IMG/VR virus record: IMGVR_UViG_2660238580_000001
Coordinates: 1 to 37,504 of that record
Reading direction: 5' to 3' (one strand)
Length of the DNA: 37,504 bases
Source of the DNA: a virus
Lineage: Duplodnaviria > Heunggongvirae > Uroviricota > Caudoviricetes
Under the pieces are notes generated by a model that was not told the origin of the DNA, searched no databases, and saw nothing but the letters and a program-made list of their open reading frames with translations. How positions within the stretch are numbered: position 1 is the first letter of the stretch; every line of letters begins with the position of its first letter. Positions 1,459 through 5,400 of this stretch are shown here, one piece after another. The position numbers and the translations under genes were made by a program.

Positions 1459-2622
1459 TTACACATCATTTGTACCTTCCTTATTTTTTGACTGGGACAA
1501 ATTTGGGACCGATGGGTTCAGGATCGAGTCTATTTGCCGTGCGTGTTCGGTAAGGTGATTAGGTGCAAGGTGAGCATATCGACGAACCATTTCGATAGAC
1601 TCCCAGCCTCCCATTTCCTGTAACACTGACAACGGGACTCCGGCTTGAACCAGCCAACTTGCCCAGGTGTGTCTCAAGTCGTGAAATCTGAAATCATCAA
1701 TACCAGCCCGTCTCAGCGCCGCTTTCCAGGCTGTGTTTGCGTCATACCGCATCTTCCTTACTGTTGGCGCTTTCGTTCCGTCTGGTTTGGTACAGCTTTC
1801 CTTGTACACAAATACCCAACGGTGATGATTCCCGATTTGTTTTTTCAATACGCGACATGCAGTATCATTCAGCGCAACGCCAATTGCGCGGTTTGATTTA
1901 CTCTCTTCCGGGTTTATCCATGCCACCCGGCGCTGCATATCTATTTGTTGCCATTCAAGGTTGATGATGTTCGAGCGTCTTAAGCCTGTTGCCAGTGCAA
2001 ATTCAACAACAGACTTTAATGGCTCCGGACATTCATCAATCAGCCTTTGTGCTTCATGGGGCTCCAGCCAGCGGATCCGTTTATTCTTTGGTTGAGGCAC
2101 TTTAATAATTGGTGCCTTATCCAGCATTTTCCATTCACGCTCTGCGGCTCTTAGTAGGGCCTTTATAAATGAAAGATGCGTAGCCTTCGTTGCAACGGAC
2201 GCTGGTTTTGGCGTGTATTCTGGAACAGGTTTCCCTTTTTTTCTGCATGCTTCTGCCCTGAGTTTCCAGTTTTCCTCATGACGCCGGTTCGTCATTTTCT
2301 GCATTGCTGAATAAATTTTTGATTCAGTAATGTCTCTTAGTTGCATTCCTGCGAAATGTTGAAGCCAGAATCCGATCCGGCTTTTGTCATCGTCCAGTGA
2401 TTTTTTATGTGCTTTCTCTTCAAGCCACCTGACACACGCTTCCTCGAACGTTATATCAGGTATTTCACCAAGTTTGCTGACCCGCCATGCTTCAGCCTTT
2501 AGCTTGTCATGGAGTTCTGTCGCCTGCCTTTTGTCCTTTGTTCCAAGAGACTGTTTAAATCTTTTACCGTTCGGCAATGTGAAACTGGCGTACCATATTT
2601 CACCTCTGCGGAAGAGTGACAT
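1459..2622 (-). CDS. int: Tyrosine site-specific integrase, P22-like
   Basis: 387-aa ORF; C-terminal catalytic region with HDLRHTWAS ... RYAHL motifs typical of tyrosine recombinases; resembles my recollection of phage P22 Int, which uses thrW as attB. Confidence 0.94.
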
Positions 2623-3516: not shown

Positions 3517-4043
3517 TTGCGTAACTCCGATAATTCGTTAAAGCGTTCCATAAACATCCCGTAGGCATGGCCTGGAGCCAGTGGAATCACGTTGAACATC
3601 TCTGTTGCCGGGATACCTTCCAGCACAGGCCAGAAAGAGCCATCATCAAGCCCGAGATCGCGGCGTTCGGTTGCCAGCATAATGAGATCGGCATATTTCA
3701 CTGGCGTGCTCATAACAGGAGGTAACCCGTATTTCTCACGGATTACGGCGTCTATTTTTTCTTCCATCCGTTTATAGTCAGGAAGAAGTCGTTTCAGTGG
3801 TGCGGGGATGTCCTGGCAATATGCTTCTGTTGCATCATGCATTAAAGCTTCAAAAGCAAATTCCTGCGGCACCAGCTGGCTGCAAAGCACCGCATGTTGG
3901 GCGACGCTGTAGAAGTGAGAAAGATGACCGGCAAAGCGGCAGATATTTGAAAGGGAAACCGCGATATCGTTAATAACGATGTCGTCTTTATTTATCTTGT
4001 CATAATAAAAATGCTTCCCGGAAAAAGTTTTAATAAATGACAT
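3507..4043 (-). CDS. HD-domain phosphohydrolase
   Basis: Internal ATG at 4043..4041 preceded by GGAG; H...HD metal-binding signature (NICRFAGH, LMHDATEAY). Confidence 0.7.
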   Translation of the reverse strand: MSFIKTFSGKHFYYDKINKDDIVINDIAVSLSNICRFAGHLSHFYSVAQHAVLCSQLVPQEFAFEALMHDATEAYCQDIPAPLKRLLPDYKRMEEKIDAVIREKYGLPPVMSTPVKYADLIMLATERRDLGLDDGSFWPVLEGIPATEMFNVIPLAPGHAYGMFMERFNELSELRKCA

Positions 4044-4106
4044 TTCGTTCTCCACTTTATATGCGCTGCACCGCGCTGAATTTTGGGAAAAGGAAGCCCT
4101 CACCAT

Positions 4107-4588
4107 CCGGCGATTATTGAGTCAATTACGTTTCAATAGATGCCCCCGCAGGGGCGGTTAGTTTCTCCACAAAACAGAGAAGAACACCTGCGGTGGCAGC
4201 CGCCCGGATGGATTGGGTTATGAGCCCGTCGTCCGGTGATGCTCTTCTCTGTTTTGTAAAAAGGACGGTACCAGCCGGAAGCAAGGGTACAAACTGGTAC
4301 CGCCAGGACTACACACAGCATAAAGTTGTGGTGCCGGGTGCCTCCCGGTGCCTGGCGAAGGTTGCACACCAGGCGGGTGGGTATCCACAGAAGGTCGACT
4401 GTCAGCCTCAACCTTAACCCGCGTGCGCTGAGCCGCATTCACCACAACGCTAAGGATTCTCTCTGGTTGAAAATACTTAGCTGTTATGTGCCTGCTTTTA
4501 GCCACATCAGGCGAGGTGGACCTGGTTATTCCCCAACAACAAGGATTCGGTTAATCTGGTTATCCCCAACAACGCAAAAGGAAAAGAA
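4107..4588. other. GC-rich, highly structured non-coding island (candidate structured RNA or regulatory region)
   Basis: No credible ORF; 15-bp perfect inverted repeat ACAAAACAGAGAAGA (4169-4183 / 4243-4257) around a 59-nt GC-rich loop; further hairpins (GGTACCAG/CTGGTACC at 4267-4274/4294-4301; GCCCC-CGCA-GGGGC at about 4142-4155). Confidence 0.35.
4522..4573 (+). repeat. Two direct repeats CTGGTTAT(T)CCCCAACAAC just upstream of the 4589 ORF
   Basis: Copies at 4522-4540 and 4556-4573, spaced 34 bp, ending 15 nt before the ATG; second copy contains TTATCCCCA (one mismatch to a DnaA box, TTATCCACA). Confidence 0.35.
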
Positions 4589-5023
4589 ATGTCCGGTAAT
4601 ATCTACACGCTGTACAAATCCCACTGTGAAAATGTTGGAAAGTATCGGGGCATTGAAATCAGTGGGGTAGTGTCATCAGTCGAAATAAGCAAAGTCGAAT
4701 CAAGGGCAACATTACTTACTCTTCTGGACCTTGTCTTACATGAGCACCGGAAGAAATTCGGCACTCCCTATAATCAGTTGAATGGGAAAAAGGCTCTGGT
4801 TCACCTTATTCTGATGAAGCATCACTGGATGCCAAAACAGATTAATGAGATGAAATTTGATGAACTTCTTCTTTCAATTCAGGATGAACTCACACTTGAT
4901 AAAATAAGCGTAACCGCCCAGAAATTTTTAGATTATCGAGACTGGAGATCACAAATTCATCACTTTGATGATTTTGACGAAAATGAATGGGATCCTAATT
5001 TGTCTGCACAATATCTAAAGTAA
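4589..5023 (+). CDS. Hypothetical protein (144 aa), AT-rich moron-like gene opposite in orientation to the early-left operon
   Basis: ATG at 4589 preceded by AAGGAAAAG; long ORF in AT-rich DNA; a plus-strand intrinsic terminator lies downstream at 5261-5284. Confidence 0.6.
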   Translation: MSGNIYTLYKSHCENVGKYRGIEISGVVSSVEISKVESRATLLTLLDLVLHEHRKKFGTPYNQLNGKKALVHLILMKHHWMPKQINEMKFDELLLSIQDELTLDKISVTAQKFLDYRDWRSQIHHFDDFDENEWDPNLSAQYLK

Positions 5024-5201
5024 CATCCTGTGATAAAACCGTGATTTCCTGATCCAGTTTTTTTAAGGAGTCTATTATTTCCTGTCGATAAGACAGCACT
5101 TCACGAAGCTGGTTTATAGCTGCCAGCTTCTTTGCCATCCACTCGTAAATTTCCTCATTTGTGTATCCGGGCGCGACGATTTTGGGTTCTGTTTTGTGCA
5201 T
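4995..5201 (-). CDS. Hypothetical small protein (68 aa), first gene downstream of PL-like promoter
   Basis: ATG at 5201..5199 preceded by GAGGAGG at optimal spacing; track ORF 4995..5216 trimmed to this start. Confidence 0.55.
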   Translation of the reverse strand: MHKTEPKIVAPGYTNEEIYEWMAKKLAAINQLREVLSYRQEIIDSLKKLDQEITVLSQDVTLDIVQTN

Positions 5202-5260
5202 TTCACACCTCCTCAAGTTATCAGTTACTTGTTGATGGGGACCAGATTGTTAAAGAGCTA

Positions 5261-5359: not shown

Positions 5360-5400
5360 CTTGGGTACATTATGTATCTCAAGGGTACATTGTCAAGTAT
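5360..5400 (-). promoter_or_regulatory. PL-like promoter with OL-type operator repeats
   Basis: On minus strand: -35 TTGACA (5396..5391), 16-bp spacer, -10 CATAAT (5374..5369); two ATGTACCC repeats overlap it, sharing the TGTAC half-site with the cI/cro operators. Confidence 0.5.

Follow-up and report, generated by a model that had tools for sequence, protein, structure and literature searches.

How is one to read a stretch of 482 base pairs (bp) lying between the early-left genes of a prophage and a plus-strand gene for a protein of 144 amino acids (aa), in which no convincing gene can be found but long perfect stems abound? The stretch in question (positions 4107–4588) belongs to IMG/VR virus record IMGVR_UViG_2660238580_000001 (Caudoviricetes), an SfV/SfII-like prophage integrated at tRNA-Thr; the whole record of 37,504 nucleotides (nt) is referred to below as the window, and sequences of the comparison library are designated by L numbers, L002 being SfV, L004 mEp460, L006 ST64B and L236 Escherichia coli K-12 MG1655. 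An original prediction, made from the letters alone, had described an unusually GC-rich, structured non-coding island and had wavered between a structured RNA (a leader, a small RNA (sRNA) or a retron-like msr/msd element) and a protein-binding regulatory region. The analysis presented here indicates that the region is probably the structured untranslated leader of the CI-controlled leftward early operon, encoded by the minus strand and composed of an sRNA-type domain, a terminator and hairpins arranged as separate modules.

Since the true start of the left-hand, yfdR-like gene is the ATG at 4043, provided with a GGAGAA ribosome-binding site in the PGAP annotation of an identical E. coli locus, the untranslated gap extends over 4044–4588. 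The claim that it contains no credible open reading frame (ORF) holds: ORFs of 74–114 aa do occur inside the gap, and none of them has a Pfam or PHROG match; the substitutions separating the window from Salmonella phage ST64B show no preference for any of the three codon phases (21/22/19), and the lengths of the indels (1, 4, 2, 1, 1, 22, 2, 5, 6 and 2 nt) do not run in multiples of three. The GC content is indeed raised (53–58% vs 41–47% in the flanks), although the island is modest rather than unusual. The stems that had been noticed are all there, namely a 15-bp perfect inverted repeat (4169–4183/4243–4257), part of 25-nt arms (4169–4193/4233–4257) with 84% complementarity, the GGTACCAG stem, whose segments CGGTACCAG and CTGGTACCG (4266–4274/4294–4302) form 9 perfect pairs that become 13 in the fold, and a GCCCC..GGGGC hairpin (TGCCCCCGCAGGGGCG, 4141–4156). 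The minus strand of 4130–4310 folds with −83.7 kcal/mol as compared with −55.4 ± 4.6 kcal/mol for dinucleotide shuffles (z = −6.15; none of the 200 shuffles folds as well). Thus, the suggestion of a structured RNA is supported, but the RNA lies on the strand opposite to the 144-aa gene and belongs to a leftward transcript, so that it is not, as had been supposed, the leader of a “moron”. The retron-like alternative, on the other hand, can be abandoned: no reverse transcriptase is found among the annotated neighbours and the stems are explained by other conserved RNA modules.

The first of these modules is a pseudoknotted RNA domain (4318–4452, minus strand) resembling STnc100 and PasD. The Rfam scan proposed by the original prediction gives, when run permissively by E-value, a minus-strand match of 4256–4478 to the full-length STnc100 model (RF02076, positions 1–206) with 43.1 bits and E 3e-6 for the whole window, a score below the gathering threshold of the family. 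STnc100 and PasD are described as related Hfq-associated prophage sRNAs, and PasD has been validated by northern blot (bioRxiv 10.64898/2026.05.13.724894); as a rule they are found in the vicinity of Q, of holin or esterase genes, or immediately behind stx2B. In the window, the domain is closed by helix P1, in which GUUGUGGUG (4448–4440) pairs with CACCACAAC (4333–4325), and contains hairpin P2 (4436–4418) and a hairpin b/b′ (CCUGGUG/CGCCAGG, 4373–4367/4357–4351), whose loop harbours the strand a′ (CAACCUU, 4364–4358) of a pseudoknot formed with strand a (AAGGUUG, 4415–4409). The family core CACCGGGAGGCACCCGGCACC, 21 nt long, is matched exactly at 4350–4330. The core hairpin and the closing helix UGGUG...CACCGGGAGGCACCCGGCACCA of STnc100 are both present and an intrinsic terminator, whose structure is conserved in the homologues, closes the unit; a promoter at P1 was found neither by pattern scan nor at the expected offset in the group of phages having a domain of the window type.

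The comparison of its relatives supports the fold of this domain. A scan of IMG/VR for the 21-nt core returned more than 120 stretches, which yield 115 unique 321-nt segments falling into 45 clusters at 85% identity, and these clusters are alike in little besides the core. When the units are aligned, four nested helices appear: the closing helix xUGGUG/CACCAx, a 5′ hairpin, a three-pair GCR/YGC helix and the invariant CCGGG/CCCGG hairpin. In a model-guided alignment of 61 copies, 96.7% of the cells are paired and 13 of the 20 pairs display compensatory changes, a result equalled by none of 500 shuffles and approached by no slid register; helices P1, P2, P3 and P5 of the window align to the family and covary. 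Because the MAFFT alignments contained register shifts, the RNAalifold consensus derived from them missed both b/b′ and the pseudoknot, and a custom per-sequence pseudoknot search with shuffled controls was used instead. This search revealed an H-type pseudoknot in which the loop of the core-abutting hairpin pairs with the strand located just 3′ of the GCR helix; it is found in 36 of 43 diverse units, as opposed to 3–16 in the shuffles, with a mean of 11.6 vs 3.4 pairs, and its position is filled by many different sequences. Within the close subfamily, helix b of ST64B differs from that of the window by C-G to U-A and U·G to C-G changes. With a covariance model built for this work (R1), ST64B and Klebsiella phage Kp4882-1 were seen to have homologous copies in the equivalent place, which score 73 and 70.6 bits, respectively. 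The covariation analysis, the second check that had been suggested, is thus positive for this domain, as it is for the long hairpin described below.

The likeness to STnc100 and PasD concerns the identical core, the closing helix UGGUG/CACCA, the 5′ hairpin, the order of the helices, the 3′ intrinsic terminator and the carriage on lambdoid prophages. Within this common framework two types of units can be distinguished. The canonical ones are free-standing cassettes, which in L127, L094 and HK639 follow the tR′ terminators and separate Q from the holin gene, and are endowed with a terminator of their own and with a sigma-70 promoter whose −10 element ends 6–10 nt before P1. The units of the window type have a P2 with flipped G-C pairs (GCGGCUCAGCGCACGCGGG), lack a P1-proximal promoter and occupy the head of the leftward operon, 600–900 nt downstream of the cI-like repressor gene (L045, L091, L011, ST64B and Kp4882-1). 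Accordingly, the domain of the window differs from STnc100/PasD in having all C-G pairs of P2 flipped (GCGG..CGCG-type), in having no promoter at P1, in its sub-gathering score and in its location within a repressor-controlled early-left leader, whereas the known units have Q or stx2B on one side and the holin or nanS-p genes on the other; furthermore, the consensus line of STnc100 in Rfam does not include the pseudoknot found here. Units of the STnc100 type also occur in tandem arrays of three to four, spaced ~250 nt apart (L067 4375–5467, L026 368–996 and L017 2318–3355), and a weak full-length match of about 16 bits, which may be a decayed copy or due to chance, is seen on the minus strand of the orf31–yfdR spacer of SfV-like phages (L002 2608–2724, L004/L005 1608–1724).

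In the direction of leftward transcription the domain is followed by a second module (4258–4317, minus strand), consisting of the single-stranded linker ACUUUAUGCUGUGUGUAGUCCUG and an intrinsic terminator, for which the fold, the homologues and a sub-threshold DicF match provide the evidence. The terminator stem GGCGGUACCAG...CUGGUACCGUC occupies the region 4304–4264 and is followed by the tail UCCUUUUU (4265–4258), the fold consisting of a 13-bp stem and then a U-run. In ST64B and in many other phages the sequence of this stem has been replaced entirely while the hairpin and the CCUUUUUUAC are retained, which identifies the GGTACCAG stem as a terminator. With the DicF model of Rfam (RF00039) the window scores 15.7 bits (E 1.7), a value that is not significant alone, L183 scores 29.1, L221 28.2 and the DicF of K-12 76.7 bits; by this score the linker of the window is not a member of the DicF family. 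The sequence UGGCGGUAyCAGUUU is common to the window and to K-12 DicF.

The comparison with the Qin prophage of K-12 gives these resemblances a wider context. DicF is produced from a DicA-repressed transcript initiated at dicBp, from which termination and RNase III generate a 190-nt form and RNase E a 53-nt form (bioRxiv 10.1101/2023.04.14.536235; PMC5069750), and no internal promoter was detected by primer extension (bioRxiv 10.1101/2023.04.14.536235). The Qin stretch from ydfC to dicB contains, in this order, a structured domain whose closing helix is GGUUGUGGC/GCUGCAACG, DicF together with its terminator, an STnc100-like domain of the window type and the dicB start codon. The STnc100-like domain in the dicF–dicB spacer (L236 2451–2589; NC_000913 about 1649450–1649588, plus strand) scores 65 bits with R1 and 34.4 bits, below threshold, with Rfam, and displays a U-A compensatory change within the otherwise invariant core hairpin. 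For this pseudoknot domain no annotation was found, and its extended P1 helix spans the published RNase III cut that gives a 72-nt form of DicF. The window shares with Qin the position in the operon, downstream of the leftward promoter of a cI-like repressor and upstream of the first effector genes; like DicF, its module belongs to the untranslated part of a repressor-controlled leftward operon and its intrinsic terminator comes after a structured precursor domain. In both loci some 135 nt of structured 5′ domain are joined by a short linker to an intrinsic terminator, for a precursor of about 190–220 nt, and both share the linker/terminator sequence UGGCGGUAyCAGUUU...CCUUUUU. The order of the parts differs, being domain X, DicF, STnc100-like domain and dicB in Qin, and STnc100-like domain, DicF-like terminator and long hairpin in the window. 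Judging from the sequences, the region is the SfV-type counterpart of the dicF locus, in which the same kinds of modules are arranged differently.

The third module is a long hairpin with a three-way junction (4160–4265, minus strand), recognized from the inverted repeat, the fold and covariation. Its main stem (4257–4238/4188–4169) comprises 20 contiguous pairs, two of which are G·U pairs that would be C·A mismatches on the plus strand, so that these two pairs form in the minus-strand RNA only. Beyond the stem, a helix CCGGA/UCCGG encloses the apical hairpin GGGCUCAUAACCC (4227–4215, minus strand) and a variable side hairpin GCGG..CCGC completes the junction. A G-C to A-U swap distinguishes ST64B, and the exact apical motif is present in more than 120 further IMG/VR stretches (88 unique versions), in which a terminator always comes ahead of the long hairpin, while a short GC hairpin and a gene of the orf32-like (phrog_204) kind always come after it. 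In an alignment of 28 sequences (A3), 94.6% of the cells are paired and nine pairs show compensatory changes, the covariation score being reached by none of 500 shuffles; for instance, one position is C-G in 15 and G-C in 13 sequences and two others are A-U in 24 and G-C in 4, while the U·G pair is retained in 24 of the 28.

The apex of this hairpin deserves separate consideration. All 13 nt of GGGCUCAUAACCC agree with the anticodon stem-loop of the tRNA-fMet of E. coli (sequence from PMC8887418), with three G-C pairs and the loop CUCAUAA bearing the CAU anticodon, and when the sequences are collected with an anchor that excludes the apex, GGG-CUCAU..-CCC is retained in 72 of the 76 unique versions. 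The copy is confined to the loop and its stem of three pairs, and the rest of the long hairpin is not tRNA-like; neither Rfam nor ARAGORN finds a tRNA in the region, the sole tRNA of the window being tRNA-Thr (1369–1441), and the hairpin matches no Rfam family. Leaders mimicking tRNA do exist, the thrS operator being an example. In some phages the slot of the STnc100 domain instead holds a tRNA-like scaffold, in which acceptor, D and T arms are accompanied by an enlarged anticodon region whose loop bears CAU, and which has the same closing stem, GUUGUGG/CCACAAC; with the Rfam tRNA model the scaffolds in the leaders of L221, L201 and L183 score 28–44 bits, and ARAGORN finds no tRNA in the inserts of L221 and L201. 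The long hairpin with its copy of the tRNA-fMet loop appears to be undescribed in the literature searched. That it represents an undescribed, widespread RNA element of lambdoid phages lacking N, the apex of which deliberately mimics the anticodon arm of the initiator tRNA, is a tentative proposal that we regard as rather doubtful. VapC-type anticodon nucleases of Shigella and Salmonella recognize tRNA-fMet, and the hairpin could be a decoy or sensor for factors that do so, be it these nucleases, MetRS, or the P site of the 30S subunit together with IF3. Another possibility is that it serves as a processing signal in the manner of a tRNA, separating the sRNA from the early-left mRNA.

The last element before the coding sequence is the short GC hairpin GCCCCUGCGGGGGC (4141–4156, minus strand), which normally stands just upstream of the first leftward gene and is replaced in other phages by a hairpin of different sequence at the equivalent place. 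Positions 4044–4155 of the window match the spacer between orf30 (yfdR) and orf31 of SfV (L002 2598–2708), and positions 4144–4519 match the region upstream of SfV orf32 (L002 from 4001 onward). Since the two matches overlap exactly on the GC hairpin, which is present twice in SfV, the hairpin is the joint of a deletion that removed the homologues of orf32 (phrog_204) and orf31 (DUF2303/yfdQ-like). The deleted arrangement is shared by SfII and SKA5, which likewise have no orf31 and orf32 homologues (compare PMC3851460).

As to the origin of the leftward transcript, a near-consensus promoter TTGACA-16-CATAAT (5369–5396, minus strand) can be read directly after the cI terminator. Because it is overlapped by ATGTAC..GTACAT-type operators resembling those between cI and cro, it is likely to be pL, and as such the likely source of the transcript containing the region. 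By analogy with the DicF of Qin and with PasD/STnc100, the following sequence of events can be proposed. Upon release of pL by CI, the polymerase would move to the left, first reading the 144-aa gene in antisense and the repeat block adjoining it, and would then transcribe the pseudoknotted STnc100/PasD-type domain (4452–4318) and the short single-stranded linker. Most transcripts would stop at the intrinsic terminator, with the stem at about 4304–4266 and the U-run to 4258, with 3′ ends expected at 4258–4262, releasing an RNA of ~200 nt made of a structured 5′ domain and of a DicF-like 3′ seed and terminator, which may be processed by RNase III as well as by RNase E and act in an Hfq-dependent manner. 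The transcripts reading through would form the three-way-junction hairpin, whose 20-bp stem would display the copy of the initiator-tRNA anticodon stem-loop, and would then pass the small GC hairpin and enter the first gene, which here is yfdR because two genes have been deleted at that hairpin.

Several considerations weigh against this reading. The STnc100 match (43.1 bits) does not reach the gathering score of 47; with the gathering thresholds, the tRNA-Thr is the only Rfam hit in the whole window and the link to the family is seen exclusively in the E-value scan. The 77.3 bits that R1 assigns to the domain of the window are not an independent value, the window being row 1 of its seed alignment. 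The DicF gathering score (48) is not reached either, and the connection with DicF rests on intermediates (L183 and L221) and on synteny. A competing local partner, ACCUU (about 4395–4391), is available to strand a of the pseudoknot (AAGGUU). Transcription, 3′ ends and processing are all borrowed from the systems just mentioned, and read-in from pL could be limited by the convergent 144-aa gene and by a weak terminator-like site (4920–4905, minus strand), both of which lie between pL and the RNA. Finally, the canonical STnc100 units have their own promoter, so that the window may contain one that was not recognized.

This last point leads to the strongest of the rival explanations, namely that the region is an autonomous sRNA “moron”, with a constitutive promoter of its own at about 4480–4515 and a terminator, expressed in the lysogen independently of pL. 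At least 16 of 45 representative units do have a sigma-70-type promoter 6–10 nt before P1 (e.g., TTGACG-18-TACATT and TTGACT-17-TATTTT) as well as their own terminators, and a weak CTGATG-16-CATAAC at 4510–4483 (minus strand) would direct a start near 4477 that fits the 5′ end of the Rfam model. However, the promoter pattern scan found none there, and in the candidate −10 the conserved T at the end is missing and the sequence differs between homologues (CATAAC, AATAAC, CACAAC, TCGCAG, CATAAA). Furthermore, none of the members of the window type has a P1-proximal promoter, and primer extension revealed no internal promoter in the counterpart from Qin (bioRxiv 10.1101/2023.04.14.536235). Expression as an independent gene, though conceivable, is therefore considered unlikely when set against the leader of the CI-controlled operon.

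Distinctly less likely is a cis-acting leader that modifies the polymerase and causes antitermination, as HK022 put does or as nut might do without N, the structured RNA or the hairpin with the tRNA-like apex acting together with the boxA downstream of pL to carry the polymerase past the terminators of the operon. In its favour it can be said that no gene for an N-like protein was found, the 68-aa ORF following pL and the orf32/Sb37 proteins, the first ones encoded leftward, not being arginine-rich, and that several terminators lie inside the operon leader. An exact rrn-type boxA, GCUCUUUAACAA (5247–5258, minus strand), occurs a little downstream of the candidate pL and immediately behind a hairpin. 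It is the single match in the window, where 0.14 would be expected by chance even with one mismatch tolerated, and may point to antitermination dependent on Nus factors in a phage devoid of N. In L221 the structured slot comes after a boxA-like UGCUCUUAC, and for phage LLS, which shares part of the long hairpin, put-like antitermination of N-less phages has been proposed by its authors (PMC12315714). The resemblance to the put sites of HK022 and HK639 is limited to their being promoter-distal structured RNAs in early operons of lambdoid phages without N; the putL and putR sequences of both phages were read, and neither their sequence nor their two-stem fold is found in the region. In fact, HK639 carries both elements at separate places, a put-like RNA at pL and an STnc100-type unit in the late region (R1 44806–44930), the canonical units of the family are free-standing promoter–terminator cassettes, and the long hairpin sits downstream of the very terminator that would have to be overcome.

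A function at the level of DNA, with the palindromes and repeats as protein-binding sites (DnaA boxes, operators or an origin), is very unlikely and, if it applies at all, concerns the conserved block of ~100 nt at 4479–4588, where the original prediction had seen DnaA-box-like direct repeats. The repeats are real (4515–4533/4549–4567, 79% identity, 34-nt spacing) and their shared core CTGGTTAT(T)CCCCAACAAC does end 15 nt before the ATG at 4589; the block, which also contains a hairpin GCCUG..CAGGC, is conserved beside many genes and its repeats flank a −10-like GTTAAT (4551–4556, plus strand) facing the 144-aa gene. Four one-mismatch DnaA-box matches lie on the plus strand between 4163 and 4568. 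Their character as DnaA boxes did not survive scrutiny: the region contains no exact TTATNCACA, one-mismatch boxes in the window are at chance level (40 found vs 28.5 expected), and the TTAT part of the repeats becomes ATAT, AAAT or AACG in the homologues, the variable positions falling on the conserved bases of the box. CI-type operators (ATGTAC..GTACAT) are absent from the region, and the G·U-type asymmetry and compensatory changes of the palindromes are explained by RNA pairing only, so that a protein-binding role is possible for the repeat block and not for the palindromes. As for the block itself, it is ~87% conserved in Kp4882-1 beside a different, 171-aa gene, and 19 unique versions are known beside at least eight different divergent genes, with the start codon 10–25 nt from the second repeat; the −10-like element reads GATAAT in Kp4882-1 and TATAAT in L051, and no −35 element is evident. 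From these sequence comparisons, the block is most likely a portable promoter/operator and 5′ untranslated region of the divergent cargo gene, and the direct repeats are not part of the leader RNA fold.

The probability that the region is the relic of a decayed protein-coding gene is negligible since, in spite of a “frameshifted hypothetical protein” called by PGAP at about 4126–4445 (minus strand) in the identical E. coli locus and of the SfIV annotation (SfIV_34, SfIV_35) extending an ORF into it, calls that are both probably spurious, the alignment to ST64B that might have exposed such a gene gave no codon periodicity and no prevalence of indels in multiples of three, Pfam and PHROG yielded no hits, and covarying RNA helices account fully for the same DNA.

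The surroundings are those of an SfV/SfII-like prophage. The prophage begins with the integrase gene (1459–2622, minus strand), preceded by proA and tRNA-Thr(CGU), and for the identical E. coli locus the annotation lists int, an HTH/xis-like gene, yfdT, a phage protein gene, yfdR, the pseudogene of the “frameshifted hypothetical protein”, a gene of the ECs1072 family and one for an XRE (cI-like) repressor. The nearest relatives are the Shigella serotype-converting phages SfIV, SfII and SfV and several E. coli phages, Salmonella ST64B being more distant, and about half of the complete E. coli genomes searched, 2785 out of 5426, contain some part of the 482-bp stretch. The 144-aa cargo gene (4589–5023, plus strand; phrog_5286, “ECs1072 family”) is oriented divergently to the RNA and converges on pL. 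The ORF that comes first beyond pL, of 68 aa (phrog_1744; 4995–5201, minus strand), overlaps the 3′ end of this gene by ~29 nt, and in view of this convergent overlap transcription from pL would be antisense to the cargo gene. SfV is said to possess a “transcription-termination immunity” described by Roberts et al. in 2007, and the region was considered as a candidate for that locus; most likely the two are different, the SfV record placing immunity at orf37 in the early-right region and the window having no such RNA, with no Rfam match to either C4 (RF01695) or isrK (RF01394). Matches to isrK and C4 antisense RNA above the Rfam threshold were encountered in the early-right region of mEp460 (L004 5652–5840) and ST64B (L006 5732–5920), and probably correspond to the “immunity region” (orf37) annotated in SfV.

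What, then, does the reading of this locus as an RNA leader imply? In the first place, it corrects the annotation pipelines, which label the stretch a “frameshifted hypothetical protein”. The parts resembling STnc100 and DicF are of known kinds, but they represent new variants that score below threshold and stand in a context not seen before, and through them three separately named families of prophage sRNAs, STnc100, PasD and DicF, are tied into one modular leader system, the parts of which are shuffled between phages and which includes a previously unremarked STnc100-type pseudoknot domain in the dicF–dicB spacer of K-12. Furthermore, the conserved hairpin with its copy of the initiator-tRNA loop, matched by no Rfam family, offers a testable handle on the organization and processing of the early-left transcript in lambdoid phages that lack N.

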